DNA of 63,565 nt, the filler included, from Malassezia furfur (Eukaryota): the NCBI GenBank assembly GCA_052055015.1. It is 7 parts of 7 records of this genome, joined end to end, with 100 filler letters (N's around TTAATTAATTAA, not from the genome) between each part and the next. Parts side by side here need not be neighbours in the genome. Positions count along the whole stretch, not along the records: positions 1 to 9,118 come from JBQJIT010000437.1; positions 9,219 to 18,281 come from JBQJIT010000438.1; positions 18,382 to 27,404 come from JBQJIT010000439.1; positions 27,505 to 36,465 come from JBQJIT010000441.1; positions 36,566 to 45,511 come from JBQJIT010000442.1; positions 45,612 to 54,542 come from JBQJIT010000443.1; positions 54,643 to 63,565 come from JBQJIT010000444.1. One strand, given 5' to 3'. The notes under the pieces were generated by a model. The model was not told the origin of the DNA, made no database searches, and worked only from the letters and a program-made list of their open reading frames with translations. A program made the translations under genes and the position numbers. Position 1 is the first letter of the stretch. Each line of letters starts with the position of its first letter. Positions 1,535 through 58,907 of this stretch are shown piece by piece.

Positions 1535-2917
1535 ATGCCGCACCCCCTCTGCATCGCGTACGCAGACCCCACTCATTCTTAGGCTGCTCTCCGACTTCTT
1601 CTTCCCCAACGTCGGCGGCGTCGAGGGGCACATGTACATGGTCGCCCAGCACCTCGTGCGCCGCGGTCACAAGGTACGCTGCACGCTCACGCGCAGGTGA
1701 TCGTCGTGACGCACGCATACGCGCCGCACCGCGCCGGCGTCCGCCATGTGCCGGGCGGCATCAAGGTGTTCTACGTGCCCCTCCAGGTGCTGGTCCGCCA
1801 AGATACCCTGCCAAACTTTTTCGCGCTGCTCCCGGTGCTGCGTGCGATCCTCGTGCGCGAGCGCGTCGACATCGTGCACGGCCACCAGGCACTGTCGAGC
1901 ATCGCACACGAGGGTCTCTTCCACGCCAAGGCACTCGGCCTCCGCACCGTGTTTACCGACCACTCGCTCTTTGGCTTTGCCGACGTCGGCAGCGTGCTCA
2001 CCAACAAGCTGCTGCGTTTTGCGCTCACCGACGCCGACCACGTCGTGTGTGTGAGCCACACGGCGCGCGAAAATACGGTGCTCCGCGCGGCGCTGCCGCC
2101 CCACGACGTGTCGACGATCCCGAACGCGATCGACGCGCAGGCATTCCGCCCGACGCACACGGCGCCCACCGACCACGGTACGTCCTGCGCAGCTTACGCA
2201 GTGTGCATCGTCGTGCTCAGCCGCCTCATGTACCGCAAGGGCATCGACTTGCTCCTCACGGCGATCCCCGCACTGTGCGCGCGCCACGCCGACGTGCGCT
2301 TCGTGATCGGCGGCGACGGGCCCAAGGCCGTCGCACTCGAGCAGATGCGCGAGCGGCACATGCTCCAGGACCGCGTCGAGCTCGTGGGCGCCGTGCGCCA
2401 GCGCGACGTGTGTGCGCACTTGAACCGCGGGCACATTTTCCTCAATACGTCGCTCACCGAGGCGTTCGGCACGTCGATCATCGAGGCGACATGTGCGGGG
2501 CTGTATGTCGTCACGACGCGCGTCGGCGGCATTCCGGAGCTGCTGCCGCCGTCGATGATGCGCCTCGCCGAGCCGTCCGCGGACGCGATTGTGCGCGAGA
2601 CCGACGCAGCGATCGCGCACATCCGTGCGGGGCGCCACGATCCAGACGCACAGCACCACGCCGTGGCCGAGATGTACGCGTGGGCGCACACGGTCGCACG
2701 CCTCGAGCGCGTGTATGCGCGCGTGATGGCCCGTGCGCCGACGACGAGCGCCGCGCGCTTCCGACGGCACTGGGCGCGCGACGGGCCGGTCGCGGGCAAG
2801 ATTGTGTGTGTGATCATTGCCGTGCAGATGGTCATGGTGGTCGTGCTTGAGTGGCTCGTCCCGCGCGCGAAGCTGTGGCGGCCAGGCAGCGTGATGTCGG
2901 AAAAGGCAGGGACGTAG
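1535..2917 (+). CDS. GPI3: GPI-GlcNAc transferase catalytic subunit (PIG-A/Gpi3/Spt14)
   Basis: Spliced N-terminus MPHPLCIA|LLSDFFFPNVGGVEGHMY...RGHK|VIVVTHAY; motifs TVFTDHSLFGFAD, SRLMYRKGIDLL, FLNTSLTEAFG. Introns 1558-1582 (25 nt), 1674-1696 (23 nt) and probably 2178-2201 (24 nt, in-frame). Confidence 0.95.
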
Positions 2918-3695
2918 ATCGAGAGGTGTAGGCTAAGTGAGGCGAATATGTCTATGAGTGGGGCAGACGAGGGGGGCAGCGCCAAGGTTGCCGGGATGGA
3001 CAAGAGGGAGGCGGCGCACCACGGCCGCGGCGCAGCAGGCTCCGGCGGTACTTGTCCAGTAGGTCGTCATGCACGAGGGCCGGATGCATTGGACTTTCGC
3101 GTACCCAGCGTGGCCTGACCTAGTTCCCTTCGCCTCGTTGACCCGCCTGGGCCACGTAGCCTGACTCACTGGCCTGTTCATCCAGCCTGGTGTCGGCTCC
3201 ATCTCGCGGACTGTGCCCTTGACTCGGGCGTTGCTCTCGAGGCCCCGCGTGGCTCGTGTGCGGCCTGCTCCTTTGACTCGGGCCTGGCCCTCGAGGCCCC
3301 GCTTGGCCCTCGAGGGCGCTCATGATCCTTCTCTGGCCAAACTCGCCGGATTCCACTCTTCACCCACTGACTTGCTGCCTTTCCCTAGCCCGTTTCCCCT
3401 GATTCCACTCCTTACCCACTCACTGCCTGTCCTTTTCTATCGATAGCATCTACGGCAGTCGTGTGCGTTGCGACAGCGCAGTCGGACCCGGCGGTTCCCG
3501 CCGAGCAGCGGCCACCTACCAAGCAGGGGCCGCCCACTGAGCAGGGGGCGACACGGCCGAGCAGGGTAGGACACAGGCAGGCCGCGTGGTCACTTAGAGG
3601 GTCCCCACACCGCCACCCAAGGGCCCGTGCGTGCCAACTCACGGTCCCCTCGGCCCCCTCGGCCCTTTTTCGGCGCTTTCTCGGTCCCCACGCGC

Positions 3696-6600
3696 TCAAG
3701 CCGCGAGCTTCATCTCAAAGAACGACTTGGCGAGCTCAAGCGCCTCGTCCACGGCCTCGCTCGACGCCTCGCCCTGGCCCTGCGCGCCATCGGGCTTGCC
3801 GCCGCCACGGCCCTGCAGCTTCTCGCTCACCGCCTTGTTCCACGCAACGGCATCCAGGCCGCGGTCAAGCACGGCCTTGGGCACATAGTTGCTGTAGATC
3901 GTCTTGCGCGTGCTCGGGTCGCGCGAAAAGAGGTACACGGGCTTGTCGGCCTTGCGCGCGGCGGCCATGCCCGCCTGCAGCGCCTTGCTGTTCGCGCCGA
4001 CGTCGAGCTGCTGCACGAGCACCGGCGCATCGGGGTGCTCGGCAAAGTAGTTGGTGACCGCCTCCTGTGCGGCCTTGACGTCCGCGGCCGACTTGGCCTT
4101 GAGCGCGGTGTCGAGCGTCTTGCGCGCCTTGGCGAAGCGCTGCTTGAGCGCGTCCTTGCGCAAGACGCTCATGTCCATGCGCGCGAGGTCGACGCTGAAC
4201 GCCTTGAGCTGCGCATCCTGCGCGGCCTGGTCGGCGAGCTGCTCGATCGCCGCGAGGCGCGCGTCGGCGGCGTCGGCGGTGCGCGTGACCTCGGCGGCCT
4301 CGTCGCCGGTCACCGCGGTGACGCGGCGGATGCCCTTGGCAATGCCGCCCTCTTCGGTGATGACGAGCTGCGTAATCTCGCCGGTGCGCTTGACGTGCGT
4401 ACCGCCACAGAACTCGACGCTCGTGCTGCGCCACTTGGGGTTCTCCAAGTCGCGCGCCATCTCGGCCGTGTCGAACTCGAGCGAGACGACACGCACGGGG
4501 TTGGGGTACGATTCGCCGAACACGGCGCGCAGGCCGGGGATCTTGTACGCGTCCTCGAGCGCCATGTCCTGGCTGAACACCTGCACGTCGCGCGCGATGA
4601 ACGCGTTGCTCAGCTGCTCGATGCGCTCCAGCTCGGGCACGGTGAGCGCGGCCTTGTGCGAGAAGTCGAAGCGCAGCTTGGCGGGCGCCACGAGCGAGCC
4701 CTTTTGGTCCACGTGGTCGCCGAGCACCTCGCGCAGGCCAAAGTTGAGGATGTGCGTGCCGGTGTGGTTGTTGCGCAGCGGGCGGCGGCGGTGCTCGTGG
4801 AACGTCGCGCTGACCGCGTCGCCAACGCGCAGCGTGCCGTAGTGCAGGTAGCCGACGTGCACCACGTACCCATTGTACACCTGCACGTCCGTGACCTCGA
4901 ACTCGGCCGAGCCGTCCGCGAGGCTCAGCACGCCCATGTCCGCCTGCTGCCCGCCGCTCTCGGCGTAAAAGTTGGTGCGGTCGAGCAGCACGCCGAACGG
5001 CTCCTCGGGCGCGCCGAGCTCGCTGCTCGCCTGCACGAAGTGGTGCGCCTGGAACAGCGCCTTGACGGTCGCATCGACGGTCGGCGTGTCGTACTTGAAC
5101 ACGTCGTCCGTCTTCGGCACCGCCGCGTCCGCCTCGAGGTGCGCGAGGTCGTGCACGTCCGGCTTCACCGCGTCCGACGTCTGCTGCTTCGCGCCGCCCT
5201 TGCTCGCCTCCTTGCTCTCGGCCTGCGCGGCATCAAACTCCGCCTGGTCAAACGTCAGGCCCTGCTCCTCGGCCATGATGCTCGTCAGGTCCACGGGGAA
5301 GCCAAACGTGTCGTACAGGCGCCACACGTCCGCGCCACGCAGCTTCGTGCGCCCCTCGGCCTTGGCCTTCGCCGCGTACTGCTCAAACAGCTTCTCGCCC
5401 CGGTCGAGCGTGCGCGCAAACGACGCCTCCTCCTCGTCGAGCAGCGCACAAATCTCCGCCTCGCGCTTGCGCAGCTCGGGGAAAAAGTCGCCCATCTGCG
5501 CCACGAGCGTCGGCACGAGCTGCGAGAAGAAGTGGCCGATCGGCACGTGGAAGTACTTGCGCACAAACCGCACGCCGCGCCGCAGGATGCGCCGCAGCAC
5601 ATACCCGCGCCCGTCCTTGTCGGGCACGCCGCCGTCGCTCATCGCAAACACCAGCGTGCGCACGTGGTCTGCCACGACACGGTACGCGGTGTCGATGCCG
5701 TCGGTGTCCTCGGCGCCGAGCTTCCCTTGGTAGGGGCGCGCGTTCGTCAGCTCCTGGATGCGCGCAAACAGCGGCGCAAACACGTCCGTGTCGTAGTTCG
5801 ACGGCTTGTTCTGCAGGATCGACACGAGCCGCTCAAAGCCCATGCCCGTGTCGATGTGCCGCGCGGGCAGCGGACGCAGCGAGCCGTCCTCCTCGCGGTT
5901 GTACTGGATAAACACATTGTTCCAGATCTCGATCACGTCGGGGTCGTCCTGGTTCACGAGCGCCGCCGCATTGCGCCCGCCGATGCGGTCGTAGTGCACC
6001 TCGCTGCACGGGCCGCACGGACCGGTGGCGCCCATCTCCCAGAAGTTGTCCTTCGCGTCGCCGGTGAGGATGTGGTCGTCTGCGACGCCGACCGCGCGCC
6101 AGCAGTCGCGCGCCTCCGTGTCGGGCTCGAGGCCCAGCTTCGGGTCGCCCTCAAAGTACGTCACGTACAGCCGGTCCTTTTCCAGGCCATACACCTCGGT
6201 GAGCAGCGTCCAGGCATACGCAATCGCGTCTTTCTGCGTCGTCAGTGTGTGCGACCACGCACCTTGAAGTAGTCGCCAAAGCTCCAGTTGCCCATCATCT
6301 CAAAGAAGGTGTGGTGGTACGTGTCCTTCCCGACGTCGTCCAGGTCGTTGTGCTTGCCGCCGGCGCGGATGCACTTTTGCGAGTTGACCGCACGCCGCAG
6401 CTTGCTAAAGTCCGACGCAGGGTCGACCGTGCCGAGGAAAATGCTCTTGTACTGGTTCATCCCGGCATTCGCAAACAGCAGCGTCGGGTCCTCGTACGGG
6501 ATCGTCGAGCTCGAGGGGACAAAGGTGTGGTCCCGCGCCCGGAAGAAGTCGAGGAACGTCTCGCGCACCTTGGCCGCCGGCCACGCCACGTCTTGCGCCG

Positions 6601-7155: not shown

Positions 7156-7174
7156 GACGCGTGCGTGCCACCAA

Positions 7175-9118: not shown

Positions 9119-9218
9119 NNNNNNNNNNNNNNNNNNNNNNNNNNNNNNNNNNNNNNNNNNNNTTAATTAATTAANNNNNNNNNNNNNNNNNNNNNNNNNN
9201 NNNNNNNNNNNNNNNNNN
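9119..9218. other. Artificial contig spacer N44-TTAATTAATTAA-N44
   Basis: Six-frame stop linker flanked by Ns. Confidence 0.99.
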
Positions 9219-9397: not shown

Positions 9398-9925
9398 CTA
9401 CGACTGCGGCACACGCAGTTTGTCCGCAAACCCGCCAAAGCGGTGCATCAGCTCGCGCATGCGCGAGACCTTGACCGGCGGCTCGCGCCGATCCTTTTGG
9501 CGCTCGACCTTGACGAAAAAGTGGTCGCGCGCGTCGCTGCGCGCGCCCGGCGCGAGCGGCGACGAGACATGCACCGCGTCGAGCACCGACGGCGCCGTCG
9601 CCCACGCACGCTCGGCATCTTCGAGCGAGGTGTAGGCAATAGCGCGCGGATCCCGCACGCGCGACGCGTACGGGATGCGCAGCATGCCGTTGCGCTCGTG
9701 CGCGGCATGCAGCATCCGCGTGACACTCTCCGGGTCCTGGAACGTAATGGTGCCATAACCAAGCAGGCGGCTCATGCCGCGCGGGAAATAGCACTGCACC
9801 ACCGGACCCCACTGCCGTGCACTGTATGCGACCAGCGCCAGTGCGTGCTGCGGGCCGAGACGCCATTCCGCGCCGCTCGCGGTCGGACCGCGCAGGTGCA
9901 CGAAGACGGTGCACCGTGGAGGCAT
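9398..9925 (-). CDS. Hypothetical small protein with RRM-like features
   Basis: MPPRCTVFVHLRG...QWGPVVQCYFPR...LGYGTITFQDPESV resembles RNP2/RNP1 spacing. Start codon is uncertain. Confidence 0.5.
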   Translation of the reverse strand: MPPRCTVFVHLRGPTASGAEWRLGPQHALALVAYSARQWGPVVQCYFPRGMSRLLGYGTITFQDPESVTRMLHAAHERNGMLRIPYASRVRDPRAIAYTSLEDAERAWATAPSVLDAVHVSSPLAPGARSDARDHFFVKVERQKDRREPPVKVSRMRELMHRFGGFADKLRVPQS

Positions 9926-9959
9926 AGAGACCGACACGTGGAGGTTGGCCCCACCGACC

Positions 9960-12548
9960 ATGCACGTCCCTGGCTGGCGTGCGGTCTGCCTCGTGCTGGC
10001 ATGCGCCGCGGGCGCGTTACATGCGTTTGATGCGCTAGACACTGCCGAGACCGTATACCCTCTCGATACACAGCGACTCGCCCTCGATGATGCAACACTG
10101 TACAAGGCGCTCCCAACAATGTACACGACACAGGAAGCGATCTACGACGAGGCCCTACGGCTGCTGGACCTCATATGCGGGCCTGCCGAGGCGCGAATGG
10201 CCCTCGAGCCGGAGCGCATCGTCATTTCGGTCCAGCGCGCGCCTCCGTGTGGCCTCCTATGCCGCATCCACGCACAAACACGCCGCTGGACGCGGCAGCA
10301 GCTGCAGCGGACGCCAGGTGCACCCTATGCTGGGCCGCTGCGTGGGGCCGTCGCGACGCTGGTGGAGCTTGTCTTGTCGCCGGCGCCATCCCGCAGGCCG
10401 GCACACACATACTATGATGCAACGTACACCTGGCCGGACAACCCCGCAAGTAGCGACGTGCGATCCGACGCCGATGCCAATCACCCAAGCATCAATGGGT
10501 GGGAAGCCGCCGTGTGGGGCCCATTCGTCGAAGGAGTCGTGCGCACGCATGCACCAGCAATGCAGACCATCCAGGACGCGCACGATGCGGCACCCAAGGC
10601 CAACGCGCTCCGTACATTGGTACGGCGCTGGACGCTCCCACCGCAGGCCACTTCTCCGGCATGTCATGCCGCCTGCCAGGTGCGTGCCTATGCCGTTCGC
10701 CTGCTAGAATACCTTGCACACAATACGGATGCAAGCACCTCGGCCGCCGTGTCCGATGCTGCGTGGGTACTCGGCGAGCACTCGTTGTGGGGTACGCATG
10801 GTGCACTGCCCAACGTCTCGCGCGCGCTACGGGCATACGAGCGGCTCGCAGCGACCGGCAACGCATCTGCGCATGCGCGACTTGGATTCCTATACGGCAG
10901 TCCGGTCATGCACTCCATCTATGGCATGCCGAACGACACGGCGCGCGCTGTCGCACACTATGCAGTCGCGGCGAAGCAGGGCGAGCGGCACGCGACGCTT
11001 GCTCTTGCCCACCGCTCGCTACATGGTCTCGGCGTGCGTCAAAGCTGCATGCGCGCCCTCCATCTCTATGAACGTGAGGCACACAGCGCATATACCCAGT
11101 CCCAGACGGTCATTGGCGGACGGATGCCGTCCTACACCAAGTGGCCCGTGCACCTCCTCGAGCAATGGGAGCAGCGCACGCGCAAGATGCCTAAATTGCT
11201 GCACATGCCGCCGAAGAAAGGTGTATTTTGGCGATACCAGCGGCACCACATGGTGCCGAAAATCCTCGAAGAGCAGCCTCGACTACTGTACGACGCCGAG
11301 TTCCGACACGAGCTTCTGCGTGTACTGGACGCTGATCCCTCCGAGGACCTAGAGCAGTACCTATTTCTCGCCCTCGCGTTGTATCACGGCAGCATGTTAT
11401 CCCAAAGCGAAACCATTGCGGCTGTTCCGCGCGACTTTGTGCGCAGTGCCGAGCTTGCGCAACGCGTCGTGCACCACTACTGGCCCGTCGACCTGGCGCA
11501 GGCTCCGTCCAAAACGCTCAACGAGCATGACCTGAGTGTCGTCGGCGAAGCCGCAGAGCTGCTCGGAATGCAGTACCTCCGTGGCGAGGGTGTTGTGAAA
11601 GACGAGTACCGCGCAGCGCTTTGGTTCGAGCGCTCGCGCAACGATTATGGCGAGTACGGCCTGGGTTTCCTTGACCTCTATGGCCTGGCGGGCCATGTTC
11701 GTGACCCAGACGCGGCACAATCGCACTTTGCAAACCGCTCGTTCATCACCTCGCCCTATCCCTCTGCACGCCTTGAAGTGGCCAAGTACGGCCTGGCGCA
11801 CGGCAACCTCACTATGGCTCACGAGGGCCTCGACACGCCCCTGCTCTCCTTTGACGACCACTGGTACGCCGTATACCCACGGGTGGAGCAGCCGTATATG
11901 GAAGGGCTCGTTGCTGCCGCAGACTTGCGCGTCGGTAATGCGACATGTACGCTTGCCACGCGCAAGCTCAAAGAGGCGGCAGAGCGCGGCGACTGGATCG
12001 ATCCCATTTATCATCGCGGGACCGCTGCGTACGCTCGCAATGATATCCCCACGGCGCTGCTGGCGTTTGCTCTGGCCGCCGAGCAAGGCATGGCGCCAGC
12101 ACAGGAAAATGTCGCCTACCTACTTGAGTCATGTATGTGCATTACTGACACAGACAAGCGTGTAATTCAGCAGAGCGCAAACAATCCCCACGGCCTCCTC
12201 GCGCTGCGTTTCTGGGCGCACAGCGCCGTACAAAAAGGGGAAGGTGCTGTGCATATGTGCGATGCACAACTTGCATCCGGCGATCGCCAGGCAGCCATCG
12301 ACTGCTTTGGGCACCTCGCTCGCCGCAGCGTGCGTCTCGCCTACTGGCGGCTCGGATGGTTGTATGAGACAAGCCCCACGCCGGACTATGCGCTCGCGAA
12401 GCGAAACTATGATCTAGCGAGGCAGGACGGACCAGACACCGAGACCCTGTACGCATTCCTGGTTTATGTGCGCTTCGGACTGCGTGTTGTTTGGCACGTC
12501 ATCCGACGCCGGGACCCCGGGCTGCTGTGGACAGTGGCCTCGTCGTAG
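9960..12548 (+). CDS. Hrd3/Sel1L-like ERAD Sel1-repeat protein, paralog A (divergent)
   Basis: Signal peptide MHVPGWRAVCLVLACAAGALHA; Sel1 repeats (GNASAHARLGFLY, LGMQYLRGEGV, AAEQGMAPAQENVAY, DYALAKRNYD); 21-nt in-frame intron 12133-12153. Confidence 0.85.
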   Translation: MHVPGWRAVCLVLACAAGALHAFDALDTAETVYPLDTQRLALDDATLYKALPTMYTTQEAIYDEALRLLDLICGPAEARMALEPERIVISVQRAPPCGLLCRIHAQTRRWTRQQLQRTPGAPYAGPLRGAVATLVELVLSPAPSRRPAHTYYDATYTWPDNPASSDVRSDADANHPSINGWEAAVWGPFVEGVVRTHAPAMQTIQDAHDAAPKANALRTLVRRWTLPPQATSPACHAACQVRAYAVRLLEYLAHNTDASTSAAVSDAAWVLGEHSLWGTHGALPNVSRALRAYERLAATGNASAHARLGFLYGSPVMHSIYGMPNDTARAVAHYAVAAKQGERHATLALAHRSLHGLGVRQSCMRALHLYEREAHSAYTQSQTVIGGRMPSYTKWPVHLLEQWEQRTRKMPKLLHMPPKKGVFWRYQRHHMVPKILEEQPRLLYDAEFRHELLRVLDADPSEDLEQYLFLALALYHGSMLSQSETIAAVPRDFVRSAELAQRVVHHYWPVDLAQAPSKTLNEHDLSVVGEAAELLGMQYLRGEGVVKDEYRAALWFERSRNDYGEYGLGFLDLYGLAGHVRDPDAAQSHFANRSFITSPYPSARLEVAKYGLAHGNLTMAHEGLDTPLLSFDDHWYAVYPRVEQPYMEGLVAAADLRVGNATCTLATRKLKEAAERGDWIDPIYHRGTAAYARNDIPTALLAFALAAEQGMAPAQENVAYLLESCMCITDTDKRVIQQSANNPHGLLALRFWAHSAVQKGEGAVHMCDAQLASGDRQAAIDCFGHLARRSVRLAYWRLGWLYETSPTPDYALAKRNYDLARQDGPDTETLYAFLVYVRFGLRVVWHVIRRRDPGLLWTVASS

Positions 12549-12622
12549 CGTCCGTACCAACTCCACATTCGTGTGCGTGGGGCCAAATCCACGTGGTGCG
12601 CACGGCCGGTCCTTCAGCTGTC

Positions 12623-15487: not shown

Positions 15488-15592
15488 GACCCTGAGTAGC
15501 CGCGAAGCGGCCACGCCGTGGAGGTGCCTGGCCTGTGCGTGTTGTTGTTTCGGCCGAGGTGCTCGTCGACGTGGAACCGTCTTCCTTCCAGC

Positions 15593-44262: not shown

Positions 44263-44694
44263 ATGGCCGACCCCGGCGTGTCGCGGCTGTCGCAGCCTGA
44301 GGTGGTAGGTCGCGCCCACACGCTCACACGCAGCCCAGCGCACCCAAGGCGCCCAGCACCACCGAGGTGCTCCGCCAAATGTGGTCAAAGGAGTCCCTCG
44401 AGACCTTTCTCCGCGTGCCGTGCGCACGGAGCAGTTTGCTGTTCGCCATTGCGTCAGCCACGAGCATCGGCACCATTCAGGCGCTCGCGCGACGCGGTGT
44501 CGGCCGTGTTGTGAACTGGTCGGTGGGCACTTTCTTGTTCATCTCCGTGGTGGGATGGTACGCATGCATACTCACACAGGGAAACGTGCCGGCGGTCGCG
44601 TGCCGCCGAGGAGCTGCAAATGCGGCGCATCAAGGAAGAATATGCACGGCGGCGGCGCGGCGAACACAAAACCGCGCCCGCACCGCCCAACTAA
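44263..44694 (+). CDS. COX20: Cytochrome c oxidase assembly factor Cox20
   Basis: PCARSSLL..VNWSVGTF..GW|ETCRRSR. Introns 44305-44333 (29 nt) and 44558-44579 (22 nt). Confidence 0.85.
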
Positions 44695-45511: not shown

Positions 45512-45611
45512 NNNNNNNNNNNNNNNNNNNNNNNNNNNNNNNNNNNNNNNNNNNNTTAATTAATTAANNNNNNNNNNNNNNNNNNNNNNNNNNNNNNNNN
45601 NNNNNNNNNNN
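45512..45611. other. Artificial contig spacer
   Basis: N44-TTAATTAATTAA-N44. Confidence 0.99.
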
Positions 45612-47993: not shown

Positions 47994-47995
47994 AG

Positions 47996-48030
<35 letters not shown>

Positions 48031-50968
48031 TGACGTCCCAGCCCTGGAGCCGCATGCGCTCCTTGTTCCGCTTGTGCTTCATAGAAAGCTCGTCGAGCAG
48101 CACCAACAGGTCCTCGTTCTCCTGTGCCAGGTCCGCGGCGTCCTTGGAGGCGGCGGGCGCTGCCGGCTGTGCCTCGCGCAAGCGGGTCGCCTCGGCGGCG
48201 TGGGCGTCGCGCAATGCAGCCGTCTCGGCGGCGTGCGCCTCGCGTAGCTGGCGCGTCTCGGCGGCGTGCGCCTCGCGCACGCGCTGCAGCTCCTCAGCAT
48301 GCTTCGCCTCAAGCTGCTGCAGCTCGGCGACGCGCGCGTCCAGGCGCTGCTGCGTGTCGGTGTGCTCGTCGCGCACGCGCTGCAGTTCGGCCTTGACGCG
48401 CTGCGCAATGTGGCTGTACTCGTCGCGCGTGTGCGCCAGCTCGGCCTCCAAGGCGTGGACGCGCGTACTGTCCGTGGGCACATCGGCATGCTGCGTGCGG
48501 AGCGCCTGCTGCGCCTCTTCGAGCGCCTGCTTGGTGGTGTCGAGTACGCTGCGCACGGCATGCAGCTGCTCGCGCAGCGCCGTGGTCTGTGCGGCCTCGT
48601 CGTGCGCCTTGGCGAGCTCGGCGCGCAGACCCTCAACAAGCGCCGCCTCGGTCTTAGCGTGCTGCAGCTCGGCCTGGAGCGTGGCGACCTGCTGCCGCGC
48701 GTCGAGGAGCTCTGCCGAGGTCTGTGCAGCATCTGCCGAGGTCGCATCCGGCTCGACGAGGATCGCTTTCTGCACGTGGACGTAGTGCTCCTTCCAGAAC
48801 TCGACAAACAGCCACGAGAACCACACGGTGGGCATGGCGCCCTGGGGCGCGTCGGCGGGGTGGTCGGCGCGCGCGACCAGCTGCTCGAACACGTCGGGGC
48901 CGACGCTCGCGAAGCGTGGGTCGCTCTTGAGCCGCACAAGGCGCGTCGCAAACGCATCGGCGCCGACACGCGTGTGCAGAATGGGGTGCATTGCACGGCG
49001 CGTCAATACGCCGTCCTCGTCCGAGGTGAGCGGATTGAACTCGTACAGCTCGCCCAGCACAAACGCGGCGAGGCCCTGGATCAGCGGGTCGACGCCGTGT
49101 GACTGCGCCACGGGCTGCAGCACGACTTGGAGGTTGGCGCTCTCGCTCACAAGGTCCGCGACCGTCTCGGGGCTCTGCCAGAGCCAGTGGCACAGCAGCA
49201 CGAGGTAGCCGACCAGCACGCGCGTCCAGTCCTCGGAGGTGTTGGCACCCGCGTCCGCGGCCGCCGCGCGCTCGCGACGCACCGCCTCGCCGAGCTCACG
49301 CGTGGCCATCGCCACATTGCCCACGACGAGGTGCAGCAACGTCGTCGGAGGGTCATCGCCCGGGCGTGTCTCGAGCGTGGCAGTGGCGACACAGCGCCCC
49401 GTGTCGTCGAGGTGGATGCGGCGCGCAAACTCCTTGGTCGTGTCGCTGCCGTGCAGCAGGCTGCTCAGCATCAGGCACGCAAACAGATACTGCGACGCAT
49501 CGAAGCGCGTGTGCTCCGTCGAGGACACGAGCGAGGTGCTCGGCAGGTGCGCGATCGTGTCGAGCAACAGGCCGTTGGCATTGCCGTGGTTCTGGTCGGG
49601 CGCCGGCGCAGCCACACATGCATGCAGTACCGTCATGCGTACGTCGATGTTTTGCGCAACGAGCGCATCAAACGCCGCCAGCGCCGCGCCGCGCACCGCG
49701 AGTGCCTGCGCGGCTGCATCGGTCGCCCCAGGGCCGCGCAGCGCGAGCGCAATTAGGCACATCATCGCCGGCTGCGGCGCCTGCCACGACAATTCGTACG
49801 CAGGTTCTGCCACGGCGGCGTCGCTCGGCACGTCGCGGCGCACGAGCGCGACAGGCGTCACGACGGCGGTGCGCAGCAGGTCCTGGTTCTGCCGTGAGCT
49901 GCGTACGATCGCCGCGAGGAGAAGCAGCGTGTGCGCCTTGAGCAGCGGCGGGGCAAGACTCGCAAACGCGAGCTGCACGAGGCACTCGGACAGGCCGCCG
50001 TGTGCCATCGCGCGCTGATTTTCGCGGTGGTCGTCGCCGTGGCCCTCGACAAGATGCCGCGTGCACTGCACGAGCAGCAGCGCATTGGCGAGCTTCTCTT
50101 CGTCCCACTCCTGGAGGAGGAAGGCATCGCGCTGCTGCGCATATTCGTGCCGCGCGATCTCATTTGCGTCGGCCGGCAGCGGCGGTGGGAAAAAGAGGAG
50201 CGGGGCAAGAAGCGGGATCGAAAGCGTCTCGCGGAAGTAGTTCTGGTTCGATGCATTGTCGCGCAGCAACGCCTCGAGCGCCGTGAGCGCATCCTGGACG
50301 ACGACGCCGCCCTCGATGCGCCCCTCTTGCGCGACAATGTCAAGTAGGCGCTCAAACGCGCCCTCAAACGCGATGATCTTTTGGATATCGACGCTCCCGT
50401 GTACTAGCGAGGGCAGAAGAAGGAGCGCCTCGTTCCGAATAATCTCGGTGCTCGACGTGGGCGCCGCGTCCAAACACTGCAGCACCGCACTGCATCCGCC
50501 CGGTGCGGCAAGCACGCGGTCCTGTACCTCGGCACGGTGCTGCTCCAGCAGAACAGCAAGCAGCTGGAGCACCGCAAAGCGCGTGTAGAACGCGTGCGTC
50601 GGCGCGAGCAGACCGAGCAGGCCGAGCAGCGCATCAGGCTCGTCGAGCAGCTGCTGCTGCGCGCCCTTGTCAGTCGGCGACTGGCACAGCGCGAGGCACG
50701 TCTCGACCGCCGCACGGAGCATTTCCTCATCCGGCTCAGGTGCCTTGATCCAGCGCAGGAGCGGCACGAGCGCATGGGTGCGCACCGTCGTCGCATGGTC
50801 GCGCGTCAGCGCCTTGAGCGAGAGCAGCGCGGCACGCCGGTCTTCGCGCGTGAGTGCGCCATCACCGAGCTTCTGCGCGAGAACCTGCACCGTCTTGTCA
50901 GGCGTGGGCACCGCATTCGCCGCAAACTTCTCGTACTGCTGCCGTAGCAGCCCCAGGCCGTGGAGCAT
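47990..50968 (-). CDS. USO1: ER-Golgi tether Uso1/p115
   Basis: [46 protein letters not shown]; coiled coil and acidic tail. Confidence 0.92.
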
Positions 50969-51109: not shown

Positions 51110-52627
51110 ATGACCGTCTGGAGCTACGACGAGGTCGCAAAGCACGCATCTCGCGATGACTGCTACGTTGTGCTGTATGACAAGGTGTACGACGTGACCG
51201 ATTTCCTCCCCGACCACCCGGGCGGCACCCAGATCATTCTCAAGTACGCCGGGAAGGACGCTACGTACGTGGCCTGCCGCTGATCCAGCTCCGTGTTTGA
51301 CCCCGTGCACCCGCCGGGCACCATCGAGAAGCACCTTCCCAAGGAAAAACATCTCGGCTCGGTGGATACCAACACGGTACCCGAGTCGCTGCGCAAGGAA
51401 CGCGAGGAGCAGCAGCGCGAGGAACAGCAGCGCCGCGAAAACCTCCCGCCCCTGGACCAGTGCCTCAATTTGCAAGACTTCCGCCTGGTTGCGCGCCAAG
51501 TGATGACGCCGCTGGCCTGGGCGTACTACAGCTCGGCCGCCGACGACCTCGAGACGTACCACGAGAACCGTGCCGTGTTCCGCCGCATCTGGTTCCGTCC
51601 GCGCATCCTGCGCAATGTGCGCCACGTCGATCCCAGCACGTCGATTCTCGGGCACCCAAGCGCACTTCCCGTGTACATCACTGCCACGGCGCTTGGCCGC
51701 CTCGGGCACCCCGACGGCGAGAAAAACTTGACGCGCGCCGCTGCGCGCACCGGCCTCATCCAAATGATCCCGACGCTGTCGTCGTGCAGCTTTGACGAGA
51801 TTGTGAATGAGCGCACCGAAGCCGGTAAGCCCACGCAGTTCTTCCAGCTGTACGTGAACAGCGACCGCAGCGTCGTGCGCGAGATGCTGCGCAAGGCCGA
51901 AGCGGCCGACATTCAGGCGCTCTTTATCACCGTCGACGCGCCGCAGCTCGGCCGCCGCGAACAGGACATGCGCATGCACTTTGACGATGCAGGGTCCAAC
52001 GTGCAGAGCAGCTCGGGCGACGAGGTGTCGCGCGACGAGGGCGCTGCACGCGCCATCAGCTCGTTCATCGACCCGGGCCTCGACTGGGACGACGCGATGT
52101 GGATCAAGAACCAGGTGCGCATGCCTGTCCTGCTCAAGGGCGTGCAGTGCTGGGAGGACGCGCTGAAGGCCTACGAGTTGGGCTTTGCAGGCTGCGTCTT
52201 GTCCAACCACGGTGGGCGGCAGCTCGACTTCTCGCGCTCGGGCATCGAAGTGCTCGAAGAAGTGGTGTACGAGCTGCGCAAGCGCGGCAAGGCGCCCGGG
52301 CCGGCGTTCCAGCTGTTTGTCGACGGTGGAATCAGCCGCGGCACCGACGTGCTAAAGGCGATTGCGCTCGGCGCGACCGCCGTCGGCATCGGCCGCCCGT
52401 TCATCTACGCGTTCTCGGCATACGGTGCGGACGGTGTGGTACGGGCGGTGCAGATCCTGCGCGACGAGATCGAGATGAACATGCGACTGATCGGTGCCCC
52501 GACGATGCGCGACATTGTGCCCGAGATGGTCGACGTGCGTGCACTCCACAACCGCGGCACGACCATGGGCGAGCTGCCCGAGACCAACGTGCTCAACCCC
52601 ACGGGCGAGCGCAAGAGCCACCTGTAG
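51110..52627 (+). CDS. CYB2: Flavocytochrome b2 / L-lactate dehydrogenase (cytochrome)-like protein
   Basis: Cyt b5 domain (HPGG) plus FMN alpha-hydroxyacid oxidase domain ([18 protein letters not shown]); 24-nt intron 51265-51288; ends in SHL. Confidence 0.9.
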
Positions 52628-52712
52628 GCGCCATAGATCGGGTCCGATCGGGGCTGCGGCGCACGCCGCCCGGCGCGTGCCTTTGTTCTCCACAGCGGTC
52701 GTCGTCGGCGTG

Positions 52713-53809
52713 ATGGGCGCGTGCTTTTCTGGTCCGGCGCGCGGCGTGGACCAGGATGCCAAGCAAAAGAGCCTCGACATTGACAAGCGCATCGATGAGG
52801 ACAGCAAGCGGGGGAGAAGCGAGTATAAGATCCTCCTGCTCGGTTCCGGCGAGTCGGGCAAGTCGACGATCGTGAAGCAGATGAAGATCATCCACCAGAA
52901 CGGCTTCACGCCCAACGAGCTGCTCATGTACCGGCTTACTGTGATCAAAAACCTGATTGACTCGGCACAAGCAGTGGTGCTGGCACTCCGCCGATTCTCG
53001 CTCGAGCCTCAAGAGCTGACAAACCGCGAGGCGGCAGACCGTATCCTCGAGTATAACGTGCCTGCGGACGCAAACCTCACGCTGCCGGCCGAAATGGGCG
53101 CGATGATTGCGTCGCTGTGGAAAGACCCAGTGATCCCGTCGCTACTTGACCGCCGCGGGGAGTTTTATCTGATGGACAACGCGGTCTACTTCTTTGAGCA
53201 CGCGCAGAGGATTGCCTCGACGGCTTACCTACCGAGCGAGCAGGATGTGCTGCACGCGCGGTCCAAGACGGTGGGCATCATGGAGACCCACTTCCGCATG
53301 GGCGAGCTCTCGATTCACCTCGTGGATGTCGGCGGGCAGCGCTCCGAGCGGCGCAAGTGGATCCACTGCTTCGAGGCGGTGACGTCGATCATTTTCTGTG
53401 TCGCCCTCAGCGAGTACGACCAGGTGCTGCTGGAGGACAGCCGGCAGAACCGCATGGCCGAAAGTCTGGTGCTGTTTGAGAGTGTGGTGAATTCGCGTAC
53501 GTGTGGACGACTGACCCAGGCTGGTTTGCGCGCACTTCGATCGTGCTCCTGCTCAACAAGATTGACATTTTCCGGCAAAAGATCCCGCGGCACCCGCTGT
53601 CTGACTACTTCCCCGAGTACACGGGCGGCGACGACGTGAACAAGGCCGCAAAATACATTCTCTGGCGCTTTACCCTGGCCAACCGCGCCAAGCTCAACAT
53701 TTACCCGCACCTGACGCAGGCCACCGATACGAGCAACATCCGACTCGTGTTTGCCGCCGTCAAGGAAACGTTGTTGCAGAACTCGCTGCGCGAGACTGGC
53801 TTATTGTAG
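52713..53809 (+). CDS. Heterotrimeric G-protein alpha subunit, fungal class III (Gpa3/GNA-3-like)
   Basis: MGAC acylation motif; [44 protein letters not shown]. 23-nt intron 53497-53519. Confidence 0.93.
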
Positions 53810-53891
53810 TGTAGATAAGCAAGAAGACATTGGTGTGAGACACAGAGGCCGGCGGACGTCGGGGAAGGTGCGTAGAATTTCTCGGCTACGG

Positions 53892-54542: not shown

Positions 54543-54642
54543 NNNNNNNNNNNNNNNNNNNNNNNNNNNNNNNNNNNNNNNNNNNNTTAATTAATTAANN
54601 NNNNNNNNNNNNNNNNNNNNNNNNNNNNNNNNNNNNNNNNNN
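54543..54642. other. Artificial contig spacer
   Basis: N44-TTAATTAATTAA-N44. Confidence 0.99.
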
Positions 54643-56936
54643 GCGGCGGCGCGGGCGCGGACGGCTCCTCCGCGCGGCTCCCGATCCCAAAGCGGAACGG
54701 CGTTGCGCCCGAGCCGGTAAAGCCCGAGCCCGCGGGCCGCTCGGTGCGGGCAGGCGTCGCGGCAGGGGGCGCGAGGCGCGGTGTACTTGCGGCACTGGGC
54801 GTTGGCTTGGTCGCGCGCGGCGCCGGCGCCGGCGCTGCAGCAGGCTCGGCATCGTGGGCGTCAAACAGCCGCTTGAGCGGGTGGTCCTGCATGGGCTCTG
54901 CGGGCGGCGTGTTGTCGGTGTGCGGCGGCAACCCGTCGTCGGAGTCGGTCGACTCAAACTTCCATTCGGGCTCGACGGGCACCACCGACGGCTCCTCGTC
55001 CGCAAAGCGGAGCGCCAGTGGCCCGTCCTTGCCCTGGATAAGGCTCGTGCGCACGCCGCCCGCGCGCGTCCACGCCGCGTACTGTGCCAACAGCTCGCGC
55101 AGGACGGATACGGGCAGCTTGGCGTATGCGCGGATCCACTTGGTGCGCGCCAGCTCCTCGGCAGAGAGGCGCGCCTGTGGGTCCTCATCGAGGCAGCCCG
55201 CGACAAACTCGCGCAGCGCCGCCGAGTAGGGTCCGTCCGGCAGGCGCGGCGGCTTGTTCTTGGGGATCATGGCGATCACGCGCTGCTGATCCTGCTCGGC
55301 GTGCGGCGGATTGCCCGTAGCGATCTCGTAGGCGGTCACGCCGAGGCTCCAGATGTCCGCCTTGTAGTCGTACGCCTTGCCCTCGGCAATCACCTCGGGC
55401 GCCATCCAGTACGGCGTGCCGATGAACGTCGTACGCTTGCCGCGCGTGCCGCCGTGCACAAACGACGCTGCGACGCCAAAGTCGCACAGCATCGGCTGCC
55501 CGGTGCGCGTCACGAGGATGTTCGCCGCCTTGATGTCGCGGTGGATGATGCCGGCCTTGTGGATGTAGTCGAGCGCCACAAGGGTCTCGCGCATGATCAC
55601 GGCGAGGTGCCGCTCCTGGATCGGGCCGGCTTTCATCTGGGTGAGTCGGGGAGAAACGTACCAAGGTGCGCACACTGCCGCCCTCGGCATAGTCCATCAG
55701 GATGCACAGCGTTGGGCCCTGCAGCCAGCTGCCCCAGTACCGCACAATGTTTTTGGTGTGTGCCTGGCGCATCTGGCTCAGCAGCGCGACTTCACGCTGG
55801 ATCTCGCTCACGTCGTCGTCGGGCGTGTCGAGGTCGATCACCTTGAGCGCCACGAGCGAGTTGGTGCGCAGGTGCCGCGCGCGGTACACGGCGCCGAACG
55901 CACCGCGCCCAATCAGCTCGAGGCGCTGCAGCTGGTGGTCTTGCATGAGCAAGTCGCTGCGCGACGTCGATGGCGGCACTGCACGCGACGACGCACGCGA
56001 CGCGTCGCCGACGGCCGCCAGCGGCGCGTCGCGCAGCGCGAGGGACCCACCGCTGCTGGCTTGTGATCGCTCGCTCGTGCCGCGCGTGTGCCGCGAGAAG
56101 GATGCCTCGCTTGTAGCACGCGCGGCCGACGTGTCGCCGCTGTCGGTGCGCGACAGCGCCGCATACGCATCGAGCGGCGCCGCGCCCCACTCGGCGTCGC
56201 GCTCGGAGCGCGCGTCGGCGTCGGTGCTGTGCGGCACGGCGGACGGTACGGGCCGTGGCGCCTGGCGCTTGTGCAGCCGCGTAAGCCGCGAAAAGGTGCC
56301 TGCGACACGGTTGGCGGCGGCCGCCAGCGGCTTGTTCGCCGGCGACGCAAGTTTGCTCTCCTCCTCGCTCGCAAAGCTACGCGCGAGGGAGCCGGACGAC
56401 GGCTGCCGCGAGCGTGCTAGGTCGTGGCCTGGCGTGTACGTGTGGTCGTACGGCGCGCCGTTCCCCAGCATGTCGGGCGCATACGGCTTGGCGGTGCGGC
56501 TCGTCGACGATAGCGTCGACATCTGCGATGCGGATATGTCCATCGACGACGAGGACGGCATGTACGATAGGCTGTCCGAGTCATTTCGCCGGAACGTGCG
56601 CACTGTGCTGCTCGATGTTTCGCCAAAACGCCGGTCGAGCTCGGCTGGCGTAGCGATGGGGGCACTGTGCGGTGGTGGCGGCGCGCGCGACGCGTATGAG
56701 GGCGCCGGCACGGGCGTGTACGACGAGGATGGCGCCTGTGTGGCGTGTCCCACGTCACTCAGGTACGGCAGGCTCGCGAGGTGGTCTGGTAGCGGCGCAG
56801 CGGCCGCGCCTTCGATTGGTGGCACCGGTACACGGCCGATCGCGTGCCGCCGCTCGGACGTGGGCGCCTGGGGAGGGTTGGGGTGGGGGTTGGCCCACTG
56901 CGGCTCGAGCATGGCTGTGCCGCTCTCACTCGGCAT
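54643..56936 (-). CDS. Ste20/GCK-family kinase (Kic1/Nak1/POD6-like) with long N-terminal extension, 3' truncated
   Basis: IGRGAFG, VALKVIDLDTPDDDVSEIQREVALL, HRDIKAAN, LCDFG, GTPYWMAPE. 25-nt intron 55637-55661. Confidence 0.88.
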
Positions 56937-57220
56937 CGCGTGCACGGCGGACACGGCAGGCAGCACACGCACAACTTCGCAGCGCGGGGCAAAGGCGGCG
57001 TGCCTCTTGACGCAGCGGGGGTGTGGAGCGCTGTAGCGCGACGCAGGGCGGGGGGCCGTGCATCCACGTGCAGCTCTCACGCAGGTGGAGGCTGCGAGGT
57101 CGCGCGAAGACGGGCCTGGGGCGGCCCCTTTGGCGCCAGGACGAAGGGGCGCCCGGGCCACCGGGGCGCAAGTCACAACGAAAGCACAGCGGGTTACAAA
57201 GCTACGGGCAAAGGCGAGCG

Positions 57221-58907
57221 TTAGATATGGCCTTCGCTGGTGAGGTAGCGCGAGAGCTCCCGCAGCAGCTCGGTCTGTTTTTCCACGGGCATCTGCGTCA
57301 CGATGATTTGCATCACATGGCCGACCGTGATGCGCGATTCCCGGATGAGCGACGAGTAGTACACGTAGCTGAATAGCCCCATGATGAACTGGCAGTCAAA
57401 GCGGTCGGTGAGGCCACCGTGCCCAGGGATGCTGTCGCCAAAGTCCTTGATGTTGAACGCGCGCTTGAAGCCGCTCGCGAAGAAGCCACCAAACGGCGCG
57501 ACGAGACTTGCGAATGCGGCCATGACGAGCGCATGGCACTGGAACGGCGACCAAGTGAAGGTGGTCACCGGGTGCCGCAGCACCGCCGACAGCACATTGG
57601 ACACCATCGAGGGCAGCGGAGTCTCGCGCGTCAAAAACGCCGGGTTCCGGTCACAGCTAATGTTGCTAAACGCGGTCATGCCGAGGTTCACTGCCGGGCA
57701 CACCATGAAGTCGAAGCGCTGGAAGATTCCGGCCCAGAACCACGAGAAGGCCATGGTGATGAACAGCGCACCGACAAAGCCCTCAACCGTCTTCTTGGGG
57801 CTCAGGCTGATGAGCGGCGTGCGGCCAAACAACATGCCGCACACGTACGCAAAGATGTCGTTGCAGATGACAAGGCTGGCCGGCAACCAGAACCAGATCA
57901 TGCCCTCAAGGATGTTGTTCACGATGAAGTGCGACGACATGACGATCAGCATGAGCGACATGTGCACCCAGCAAAACAGGCCGAACTGGTACTTGAGGTA
58001 GCGCCGGCGCAGGTTCGTCACAAACGCCATGAACCCGAAAATGTAGAGCATGAACGAGATGAACCGGTGGTGGCGCGCAAACTGCAAAAAGAACGAGTCG
58101 GTGTACACGACGTGCTTGAAGTAGTAGATGAGCGACTCCCCGTACAGGAAAAAGTTGCACACCGCAAAGAAGTACCAGCTGAGCGTCTTGCTCCAGACCT
58201 CTTGGCGGCGCTTGTCCTGGCGGCGCTGTTCCGCATCCACCTCCTCGTCGCCCTCGCTCTGACTCGCGCGCGTCGAGCCAGTGAGGCTCGCGCGGCCGGG
58301 GATGTTGAATAGCGCCGTCACTTCGCGGTATACTAGCGTCTCGATCACGAGCACCAACAAAATCATGTACGACGGGCCCATCAACAGGATCGCTGGGTCA
58401 GCTTTGCACGCGCGACGTACTCAAGAATCCGGCGATCATCAGCAGAGAGAAGACGGTGCGTTCGCGCACCTTTTTCCAAAACGCGCGCGACACCTCGCCA
58501 TCACCGGCCTGCGTGAAGGGCGTGGGCGTCGCTGCAGCGTGAGTGGCGGCCTCATCCGACGCAGACGTAGACGCCGGCGCGGCCGACTTTCGGGGGGCAG
58601 GCGAGGGCGCAGCGGCCTTGGCATCCGCCCCGCGCTCCTTCTTGATGCGGTGTGTGAGCACCGCGTCCGACGACGTCTCTTCCTTCACGGGCGGCGTCGA
58701 TGCGGCGCTGCTTGACTTGCTCTTGGCGGCGCGCTTCGCCGCGGCACGTGTGCGGGGCGTGCGCGGCTCGGCATCGGTGGCGATCTGTGCGATGTCGTCC
58801 GAGTCTGACGGCAGCTGGTCGACGGCTAACGCATCGAACTGCGTAGATGATGCGAAGCGGTTGGCGTGTGTTGGCTCAGCCCGTCCCGACTTCCCGCGCG
58901 GCGGCAT
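57221..58907 (-). CDS. CDS1: Phosphatidate cytidylyltransferase (CDP-DAG synthase)
   Basis: SPKKTVEGF, ASGFKRAFNIKDFGDSIPGHGGLTDRFDCQ. 28-nt intron 58393-58420. Confidence 0.95.

Follow-up and report, generated by a model that had tools for sequence, protein, structure and literature searches.

The genes of the window, by which we mean the whole analysed stretch of Malassezia furfur DNA (63,565 nucleotides, filler included), are interrupted by very small introns. Their reality is confirmed at the level of sequence, and it is very probable that they are ordinary spliceosomal introns of the nuclear U2-type GT-AG class, from M. furfur or a very close relative, in a miniaturised form that is typical of the genus. 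One protein encoded in the window shares 99% identity with a named M. furfur protein, the next named ones being those of M. brasiliensis (86%) and M. obtusa (80%). The nearest named relatives of the Uso1 and PIGA proteins all belong to Malassezia, with M. yamatoensis and M. globosa giving the best matches for PIGA, so that the genus assumed at first pass is correct.

Gene models were rebuilt from scratch with a codon-usage dynamic programme, in which the intron model had neither a length preference nor a branch term, and were then curated by hand. The resulting models hold 28 introns, about 0.8 per gene model, with lengths of 21-38 nt apart from a single intron of 77 nt. There are two of 21 nt, one of 22, six of 23, four of 24, four of 25, three of 26, one of 28, two of 29, and one each of 34, 35, 37, 38 and 77 nt. 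The median is 25 nt and the mean 28 nt (783 nt in 28 introns); 23 of them do not exceed 29 nt. Since the length is a multiple of three in just six cases (eight leave a remainder of 1 and 14 a remainder of 2), most introns (22/28) shift the frame if retained. Twenty-five are supported by homology, that is, by continuous Pfam or PDB numbering, by the fit of an ortholog alignment, or by a distant Malassezia contig in which an intron interrupts the matching codon in the same phase. One intron, in CDS1, is supported by frame and motifs only, and two of 21 nt are probable. The first-pass annotation had counted 29 introns. All 28 described here reproduce its calls, including the series of 23, 26, 23 and 23 nt in EMC4, while one of its seven 23-nt introns was not recovered by the scan.

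With a flat length prior extending to 400 nt, the gene finder proposed many "introns" of 100-400 nt, which were rejected. When lengths were capped at 120 nt, eight leftover calls of 13-108 nt lay in or between real genes (1443-1525, 15484-15591, 47605-47694, 47967-47995, 48233-48247, 52624-52636, 53770-53875 and 63506-63521). These were also rejected, because they bridge inter-gene stops, enter Uso1 antisense, or lack the donor consensus and branch motif.

Splice signals and their recognition

All 28 introns have GT..AG ends, a G at +5 and a pyrimidine at +6 of the donor, and a predicted branch motif CTNA[CT] whose adenosine lies upstream of the 3' site, in agreement with the spliceosomal type assigned to them at first pass. 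The 5' hexamer is near-invariant, being GTACGT (15) or GTACGC (5) in 20 of 28; the others are GTGCGT (3), GTAGGT (3), GTTCGT (1) and GTATGT (1). Branch motifs are CTCAC (10), CTGAC (9), CTAAC (5), CTCAT (2), CTTAC (1) and CTGAT (1), and the 3' ends are CAG (26) and TAG (2). In every intron, the first AG past the branch adenosine is the 3' site. The distance from this adenosine to the intron end is 5 nt in 16 introns, 6 nt in two, 7 nt in four, 8 nt in four and 10 nt in two. The spacer between donor and branch motif measures 6-14 nt, or 19-57 nt in the four longest introns. From G1 to the branch adenosine there are 16-23 nt among the 23 introns of at most 29 nt, a near match to the lariats of about 16-20 nt that had been proposed. 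The smallest values observed are a branch adenosine at position 16, a tail of 5 nt and a total of 21 nt. The introns are GC-rich (61% G+C).

No polypyrimidine tract was found between branch and AG in the window introns. Only 3-8 nt separate the branch adenosine from the AG, so such a tract cannot fit, which bears out the first-pass statement that it is missing. In a set of 26 introns, 79 of the 110 bases in this gap are pyrimidines, mostly C, with fixed motif positions included in the count. The polypyrimidine tract is a metazoan feature, and yeasts are not known to require one.

The combination of these signals is commoner than chance would give. Searched on both strands, the composite motif GT[AG][CG]G[TC], 4-20 nt, CTNA[CT], 1-6 nt, YAG, with a total of at most 40 nt, occurs 27 times in the real sequence and 5.1 +/- 2.2 times (maximum 13) in 200 dinucleotide-preserving shuffles; 25 of the 27 matches fall on introns of the gene models, in each case on the coding strand. 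The branch-blind programme called 19 introns in high-scoring genes, each of them with CTNA[CT] close to its 3' end. As the branch motif was required in finding the other nine, the branch-motif count is non-circular only for these 19.

Each intron has three parts, the 5' hexamer, a spacer, and a compact 3' module in which CTNA[CT] is followed 3-8 nt on by the first AG. Intron definition would be the most likely mechanism of recognition. Through the usual U1/U6 and SF1/U2 contacts the spliceosome would read both the branch motif and the strong 5' site, and it would settle on the 3' site by proximity, taking the nearest AG past the branch. With such a choice by proximity, no polypyrimidine tract would be needed.

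The first-pass annotation had envisaged an adapted system that probably defines the 3' site without U2AF65. In a stronger form of this idea, the spliceosome is specially adapted or reduced, with U2AF65/Mud2, U2AF35, SF1, Slu7/Prp18 or snRNAs, for example, lost or changed, and this is what permits 16-nt lariats and a branch adenosine 5 nt from the junction. We consider it unlikely. The short distance between branch adenosine and AG, below the size of a classical polypyrimidine tract, would fit with it, and the hard lower limits (adenosine at position 16 or beyond, tail of at least 5 nt, minimum of 21 nt) suggest steric limits; the textbook-strong signals, however, fit the standard machinery. 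Also in favour of the idea, yeast Slu7 and Prp18 can be dispensed with when the branch lies very close to the AG, and U2AF35 is not known from budding yeast. The genes of the window offer nothing that bears on this reading: LSM3 is the sole splicing factor encoded there, U2AF65/Mud2, U2AF35 and SF1 being among those missing from the window, and Rfam and ARAGORN scans of the window found nothing. Myxozoans, which have even shorter introns, keep a canonical U2 snRNA, U2AF1 and U2AF2 according to the available part of PMC13644364, where similar analyses are cited for Stentor. Since canonical factors persist in lineages with shorter introns, tiny introns alone do not imply lost factors.

The smallest values could reflect a hard minimal architecture, in which G1 and the branch adenosine are no less than 16 nt apart and another 5 nt or more lead to the junction, hence a floor of 21 nt, and in which the modal fused CTNAC-N-CAG makes branch site and 3' splice site in effect one composite signal. 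This is doubtful. If it were true, and due to lineage-specific changes in 3'-site recognition or in second-step factors, a yeast that can be cultured and transformed would be the first tractable model of a spliceosome at work on micro-introns.

Evidence at individual junctions

Segments of this size might also be no introns at all, but assembly or sequencing errors, frameshifts in pseudogenes, or real short coding insertions. Six of the 28 are multiples of three, and four of those, having no in-frame stop, are readable as coding. This reading is nevertheless very improbable, and for 25 of the 28 it is already contradicted. Besides the frame shift caused by 22 of them, a uniform donor, branch and AG layout is found on the coding strand throughout, once they are removed the protein matches Pfam, PDB and orthologs continuously to the residue, and in another species the same positions are occupied by introns whose lengths differ. 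Pfam numbering is continuous, exactly or within two positions, in AlaRS, AAP1, BNA1 (two junctions), EMC4, G-alpha, PIGA, the kinase and the SDR gene.

PIGA (GPI3) has three introns on the plus strand, and the ortholog alignment agrees with all three junctions. With intron 1 (1558-1582; 25 nt, phase 2; GTACGC, CTCAT, TAG) removed, the N-terminus gives a gapless alignment with PIGA of M. globosa, a smut, Pneumocystis and a bird. Intron 2 (1674-1696; 23 nt) is frame-shifting; the ortholog alignment is continuous across it, and the Glyco_transf_4 profile stops at 21 in exon 2 and restarts at about 22 in exon 3. Intron 3 (2178-2201; 24 nt) is in frame and has no stop. The eight residues it would encode are missing in 12 of 15 aligned orthologs, including those of M. 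globosa, M. yamatoensis and M. cuniculi; the other three, unnamed or automatic predictions, retain 5-8 residues at this site.

Profile and structure numbering supports the junctions of several genes with a single intron. The tRNA-synt_2c profile passes from 99, the last residue of exon 1, to 100, the first of exon 2, at the intron of alanyl-tRNA synthetase (6234-6262, minus strand; 29 nt). AA_permease positions 356 and 357 meet at the intron of amino-acid permease 1 (AAP1; 30026-30050, plus strand; 25 nt), which unspliced gives a frameshift. The intron of flavocytochrome b2 (CYB2; 51265-51288, plus strand; 24 nt) carries an in-frame TGA and breaks off the Cyt-b5 profile at 47 of 74; against chain 1ltd_A, exon 1 reaches residue 53, codon 54 is split and exon 2 starts from 55. 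For the G-protein alpha subunit (53497-53519, plus strand; 23 nt) the G-alpha profile passes from 245 over a split codon to 247, and for the protein kinase (55637-55661, minus strand; 25 nt, frame-shifting) the Pkinase profile goes from about 88 to about 90. The intron of CDP-diacylglycerol synthase (CDS1; 58393-58420, minus strand; 28 nt; GTACGT, CTGAC, CAG) links two ORFs that overlap and are read in different frames, and it is this frame relation, together with the motifs, that supports it.

Six further genes could be compared with a distant Malassezia contig (L002; 55% GC, about 50-85% protein identity to window genes). A second contig, L001, is identical to L002 over 10 kb, so that only one independent relative is compared. 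Fifteen of the 17 introns in these genes have a counterpart matched in aligned codon and phase, with differing lengths of 23-93 nt; the other two are cleanly missing. The median of the L002 introns is 28 nt. Intron positions are thus shown to be conserved in a distant congener, and their lengths and sequences are not.

Both missing introns belong to the short-chain dehydrogenase gene (SDR, HSDL2-like; plus strand). At intron 1 (38146-38168; 23 nt, frame-shifting) the L002 ortholog is intronless and codes straight through, and at intron 3 (38931-38955; 25 nt, frame-shifting) its coding is likewise continuous. Intron 2 (38446-38469; 24 nt) has an in-frame TAG and a 28-nt counterpart at the same codon and phase, and the adh_short_C2 profile passes across it from 78 to about 81. 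In LSM3 (plus strand), intron 1 (40417-40442; 26 nt) corresponds to a 32-nt intron at codon 68, phase 0, and intron 2 (40497-40530; 34 nt) to a 25-nt intron at codon 86, phase 0.

BNA1 (3-hydroxyanthranilate dioxygenase; minus strand) has an intron 1 (41105-41130; 26 nt) at 3-HAO position 51|52, of 30 nt in L002. Across intron 2 (40956-40992; 37 nt, GTTCGT; L002 31 nt, same codon and phase) positions 88 and 90 of the 3-HAO profile stand on either side of a split codon. A donor 4 nt downstream, giving a 33-nt intron, breaks the frame and was rejected, the 37-nt version fitting both Pfam and L002. Intron 3 (40857-40880; 24 nt) is in frame; its L002 counterpart at the same codon and phase has 28 nt, and removal of the latter is necessary for the L002 reading frame.

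The 77-nt intron is intron 1 of RPS24 (41487-41563, plus strand). It lies right after the ATG, as does a 93-nt intron in L002, and has a CTAAC branch motif 10 nt before its end. Introns 2 (41843-41877, plus; 35 nt) and 3 (41937-41974, plus; 38 nt) of the same gene correspond to L002 introns of 33 and 40 nt in the same phase. The two introns of COX20 on the plus strand (44305-44333, 29 nt; 44558-44579, 22 nt) have counterparts of 26 and 25 nt at the same aligned codon and phase. EMC4 (minus strand) has four introns: intron 1 (45254-45276; 23 nt, L002 23 nt), intron 2 (45173-45198; 26 nt, L002 23 nt), intron 3 (44924-44946; 23 nt, L002 25 nt), where the EMC4 profile passes from 63 over a split codon to 65, and intron 4 (44737-44759; 23 nt, L002 25 nt).

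Two in-frame segments of 21 nt, both with the branch adenosine at 16 and a tail of 5 nt, are probably introns too. For the one in Sel1-repeat gene A (12133-12153, plus strand; GTATGT, CTGAC), the alignment with a tandem paralog (12413-15484) has a gap of exactly the seven residues concerned. The seven residues of the segment in a Sld3-like gene (46574-46594, plus strand; GTACGT, CTCAC) are exactly missing in the NCBI proteins of M. brasiliensis and one M. furfur strain, and are retained by a second M. furfur protein and by an automatically predicted one, so that two of four close orthologs stand on each side. Its codon score falls in the lowest 2% of exon windows, in a test that also flagged a genuinely coding stretch. 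The Sld3-like gene has no match in L001 or L002.

In Uso1, an 18-nt motif match (49889-49906, minus strand) scored low for codon usage and yet turned out to be coding, its six residues being conserved in 13 of 13 aligned orthologs. It is the other point in favour of reading small segments as coding, and it shows that motif and poor codon score are insufficient as proof of an intron. A 21-nt match in the kinase gene (55034-55054, minus strand) has an exon-typical codon score and is probably due to chance. Motif matches also occur in non-coding DNA, in the 5' leaders of an AIF-like gene (44174-44194, minus strand) and of permease 2 (30770-30791, plus strand).

Non-spliceosomal removal, by ciliate-like DNA excision or by Ire1- or tRNA-endonuclease-type RNA cutting, has the small size in its favour and nothing else, and its probability is negligible given that GT..AG, +5 G and CTNA[CT] are spliceosomal signals and that RNA-seq splice junctions of the genus carry canonical dinucleotides (PMC5389616, in its available part).

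Genus setting and comparison with other short introns

The length centre of these introns, with a median of 25 nt, lies near or below 30 nt and is of the Malassezia genus type. As far as the accessible text of the M. sympodialis ATCC 42132 study goes (PMC5389616, Zhu et al. 2017), that genome has 5350 introns with a mean of 30 bp, 5271 of which (99%) are backed by RNA-seq, at a gene density of 0.58 per kb. Both the mean (28 nt in the window) and the dense genes are similar. M. sympodialis is, however, another species with a less GC-rich genome, and its intron lengths are reported there without donor, branch or tail anatomy. For M. restricta KCTC 27527, Table 1 of PMC9241646 gives 2150 introns with an average of 37.2 and a median of 30.0 bp; gene models of this strain were RNA-seq-guided with a minimum intron length of 15-20 (PMC6473144). 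Its median is somewhat above that of the window, and it comes without splice-signal analysis. The published lengths for these two species make the window introns ordinary for the genus. A review mentions "very short introns" in Malassezia genes (PMC7426719). The novelty claimed at first pass was therefore overstated, short introns being already documented in relatives (PMC5389616, PMC9241646, PMC7426719). Its description of the system as little studied is fair: the literature search turned up no study of Malassezia splice signals, nor any that deals with branch points, U2AF or micro-intron splicing in the genus. It seems fair to conclude that the short-intron gene layout is already known for Malassezia and that the splicing of such introns is unstudied in the literature searched.

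The main consequence concerns annotation. In-frame introns of 21-24 nt are easily taken for coding sequence, and public proteins of close relatives conflict at exactly such sites (PIGA intron 3 and the Sld3-like gene). The wider interest is modest. Hundreds to thousands of introns of about 25 nt, backed by RNA and marked by unusually explicit signals, are available in Malassezia, a growable and transformable yeast of which the micro-intron literature searched makes no use. The genus could serve to work out minimal spacing rules for U1/U2 engagement and 3'-site choice.

In ciliates, introns are rich in A+T and their branch signals are weak; microsporidia have very few introns. The window introns belong to a lineage unrelated to ciliates and differ in being GC-rich and in combining a donor that hardly varies with an explicit CTNA[CT] motif. 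They share with ciliate introns the size range and presumably intron definition, those of Paramecium being about 25 nt long according to two abstracts (PMC5014332, 10.1101/2021.08.05.455221); introns of 15-16 nt in Stentor are cited in PMC13644364. A 2026 review of introns below 30 bp names ciliates, microsporidia and dicyemids, and Malassezia does not figure in its accessible part. Microsporidia resemble the present case in being fungal-related and having introns of less than 30 nt (Grisdale et al. 2013, as cited in PMC13644364), whereas their splicing is stated to be inefficient in that paper and the window has its roughly 0.8 introns per gene model. The introns of myxozoans and dicyemids have a median of 22 bp and lie below 30 bp, with a polypyrimidine tract that is missing or extremely short and branch adenosines near the AG, as in the window. 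These are animals and obligate parasites, however, and, in what PMC13644364 makes available, a weak A-run acts as their branch site, in contrast to the strong pentamer of the Malassezia introns.

Intron set and splice signals

Genes in the window are interrupted by 28 short GT-AG introns, spread over 15 of about 35 gene models, a number that represents our reading of gene-finder output and not a curated annotation. A regular-expression scan reveals many short GT...CTNAY...YAG segments. Codon log-odds were trained on the longest ORFs, against bias, and a Viterbi-type gene finder was run with an intron model that only mildly favours donor and acceptor signals, is neutral as to length (flat prior) and lacks a branch term. 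With a ceiling of 120 nt, this yielded 19 introns of 23-38 nt in high-scoring genes; hand curation, by three-frame views and trial splicing, added seven, and a later relaxed scan two candidates of 21 nt. Eight further calls of 13-108 nt made under the same ceiling were rejected, as were the "introns" of 100-400 nt obtained when long introns were allowed, which fused adjacent genes and had poor donors. The lengths are 21 (two), 22, 23 (six), 24 (four), 25 (four), 26 (three), 28, 29 (two), 34, 35, 37, 38 and 77 nt, with a median of 25 and a mean of 28, and 23 of the 28 do not exceed 29 nt.

The anatomy is very regular. Of the 28 introns, 20 begin with GTACGT or GTACGC and all have G at +5; in 24, the branch motif reads CTCAC, CTGAC or CTAAC. 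Donor hexamer and branch pentamer lie 6-14 nt apart in 24 introns. From the branch A to the intron end there are 5 nt in 16 cases and at most 10, and the first AG past the branch A is the 3' site in all 28. By our reading, and leaving aside the AG of GTAGGT donors, in five introns an AG that is not used precedes the branch motif. In the short class the distance from G1 to the branch A is 16-23 nt (median 18), and both 21-nt introns unite the two minima (16 + 5). The window holds 27 matches to the composite motif, versus 5.1 +/- 2.2 (maximum 13) in 200 dinucleotide shuffles, and modelled introns account for 25 of these 27 matches. The first-pass annotation had listed 29 introns, of which 28 match ours in length and one, of 23 nt, was not found; the measured donor-branch-AG spacing shows that its description of short lariats with no room for a polypyrimidine tract was therefore accurate.

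The sample is not a single locus. It joins seven pieces, ordered from the longest (9118 nt) to the shortest (8923 nt), and the introns therefore come from seven different contigs in a fragmented assembly. The linkers, at 9119-9218, 18282-18381, 27405-27504, 36466-36565, 45512-45611 and 54543-54642, are built as 44 N, TTAATTAATTAA and 44 N, a six-frame stop spacer. Neighbours across a linker are not genomic neighbours, and genes that reach the end of a piece are cut off, as with the N-terminal part of Dna2 at 34803-36465 (+). G+C content is 65% over the 63,565 bases, and Pfam searches on long ORFs indicate closely packed housekeeping genes of an ordinary eukaryotic kind; scanning the window for Rfam families and for tRNAs gave no match of either sort. 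The closest named relatives of three window proteins are all from Malassezia: PIGA (M. yamatoensis 72% identity, M. globosa 69%), Uso1 (M. obtusa 80%) and a Sld3-like protein (a named M. furfur protein 99%, M. brasiliensis 86%). These identities point to M. furfur, or a very near relative, as the organism.

Homology support and a relative with the same intron positions

At the level of sequence comparison, most of the introns are confirmed as real by three independent lines: profile or structure numbering, ortholog alignment and comparative genomics. Pfam profile positions run on across the junctions of alanyl-tRNA synthetase (AlaRS; 99/100), permease 1 (356/357), 3-hydroxyanthranilate dioxygenase (BNA1; 51/52, and 88, split codon, 90), EMC4 (63, split codon, 65), G-alpha (245, split codon, 247) and PIGA (21/22), and for the kinase and the HSDL2-like SDR they continue to within one or two positions. 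Against chain 1ltd_A, a flavocytochrome b2, exon 1 of CYB2 reaches residue 53, the split codon is 54 and exon 2 starts at 55. The spliced PIGA model aligns to its orthologs free of gaps at all three junctions, and the 8 residues that its in-frame 24-nt intron (2178-2201) would encode are missing in 12 of 15 orthologs. Altogether, 25 introns have support at the level of homology; for that of CDP-diacylglycerol synthase (CDS1; 58393-58420), frame and motif are the whole of the support.

A metagenome scan provided two contigs, L001 and L002, with 54-55% G+C and synteny to 38-45 kb of the window. As both have the same sequence over 10 kb, they stand for a single relative. Fitting L002 against the window gene models gave 15 introns, and 15 of the 17 window introns of EMC4, COX20, RPS24, BNA1, LSM3 and SDR have a counterpart at the corresponding codon of the alignment and in the same phase, of different length (23-93 nt). 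Intron presence varies from species to species: SDR introns 1 and 3 (38146-38168 and 38931-38955) are precisely absent, the coding sequence running through in L002 (15229-16189). In this AT-richer relative, donors are mostly GTATGT and tails, at 5-10 nt (median 7, against 5 in the window), are longer, while the layout is unchanged. The gene at 36566-38077 (-) is continuous in the window, but the frame of its L002 ortholog is broken around L002 16646-16655, possibly by an intron.

Some genes deserve separate mention. The sole long intron (41487-41563, 77 nt; L002 12547-12639, 93 nt) directly follows the ATG of the ribosomal protein gene RPS24, and all three RPS24 introns are among the window's five longest; ribosomal-protein introns seem to escape extreme shortening. 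LSM3 (40213-40551, +), a spliceosomal Sm-like protein gene and the only splicing-related gene of the window, itself carries two micro-introns (26 and 34 nt), whose positions are conserved in L002. Three adjacent amino-acid permease genes (28727-34592, +) are tandem paralogs with an intron in the first only.

In-frame introns and motif matches in coding sequence

Both 21-nt introns are in frame, and on sequence grounds they are probable. That at 12133-12153 corresponds to a gap of exactly 7 residues against the tandem paralog; the two adjacent Sel1-repeat paralogs lie at 9792-15487 (+), and the intron is present in the first only. For that at 46574-46594, in the Sld3-like gene, exactly 7 residues are missing in two of four close orthologs among NCBI proteins (M. 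brasiliensis and one M. furfur strain). Public predictions of close relatives conflict at 46574-46594 and at 2178-2201, some retaining 5-8 extra residues and some dropping them (proteins P0181-P0184, P0001, P0002 and P0007). P0181, the 99%-identical M. furfur protein, is short, with 423 residues versus 596-608 in relatives. It looks as if in-frame micro-introns systematically give rise to annotation errors in the genus.

An 18-nt motif match in Uso1 was rejected as an intron: despite a codon score among the bottom 2% of exon windows, it is coding, with residues conserved in 13 of 13 aligned orthologs. The motif by itself is insufficient as proof. For a 21-nt match in the kinase, codon usage resembles that of exons, and two more matches sit in 5' leaders. 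The Uso1 gene itself (47990-50968, -) encodes Uso1/p115 head and C-terminal Pfam domains; in NCBI, most of its named Malassezia orthologs go under the label "type I protein arginine methyltransferase", probably a propagated misnomer.

Recognition and precedent in Malassezia

What is seen in the sequence is the splice signals, the constant order in which they stand and the first-AG rule. Most likely these are standard U2-type introns, with recognition spanning the intron, in which very strong donor and branch motifs would hold the information that a polypyrimidine tract gives elsewhere and the 3' site would be picked by its closeness to the branch. Budding yeast is likewise not known to have a strict polypyrimidine requirement or a U2AF35, and its second-step factors Slu7 and Prp18 are dispensable at very short branch-to-AG distances. 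Alternatively, as the first-pass annotation proposed, Malassezia could have an adapted spliceosome, with splicing factors changed or lost. However, a 2026 study of the shortest introns in animals describes canonical U2, U2AF1 and U2AF2 in myxozoans with 22-bp introns and cites similar analyses in Stentor, which argues against assuming loss (PMC13644364).

A look through the open-access literature for Malassezia work on the spliceosome, splice sites, branch points or U2AF found no study of its splice signals or factors, and a search on ultra-short, tiny, shortest or minimal introns returned no Malassezia paper among the matches listed. The 2026 paper names ciliates, microsporidia and dicyemids as the sub-30-bp exceptions, and the word "Malassezia" does not occur in it (PMC13644364). 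The first-pass annotation overstated the novelty, short introns being already on record for the genus. The curated annotation of M. sympodialis holds 5350 introns with a mean of 30 bp, 5271 of them RNA-seq-supported, its mapping having allowed for intron sizes of 10-2000 bp (PMC5389616). The annotation of M. restricta admitted introns down to a length of 15-20 (PMC6473144), and the species has 2150 introns with an average of 37.2 and a median of 30.0 (PMC9241646, Table 1), and "very short introns" are mentioned for Malassezia genes (PMC7426719). Given these published lengths, the phenomenon is therefore documented for the genus. What remains is an under-used opportunity and no discovery: the introns are known Malassezia gene architecture, seen here in M. 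furfur.
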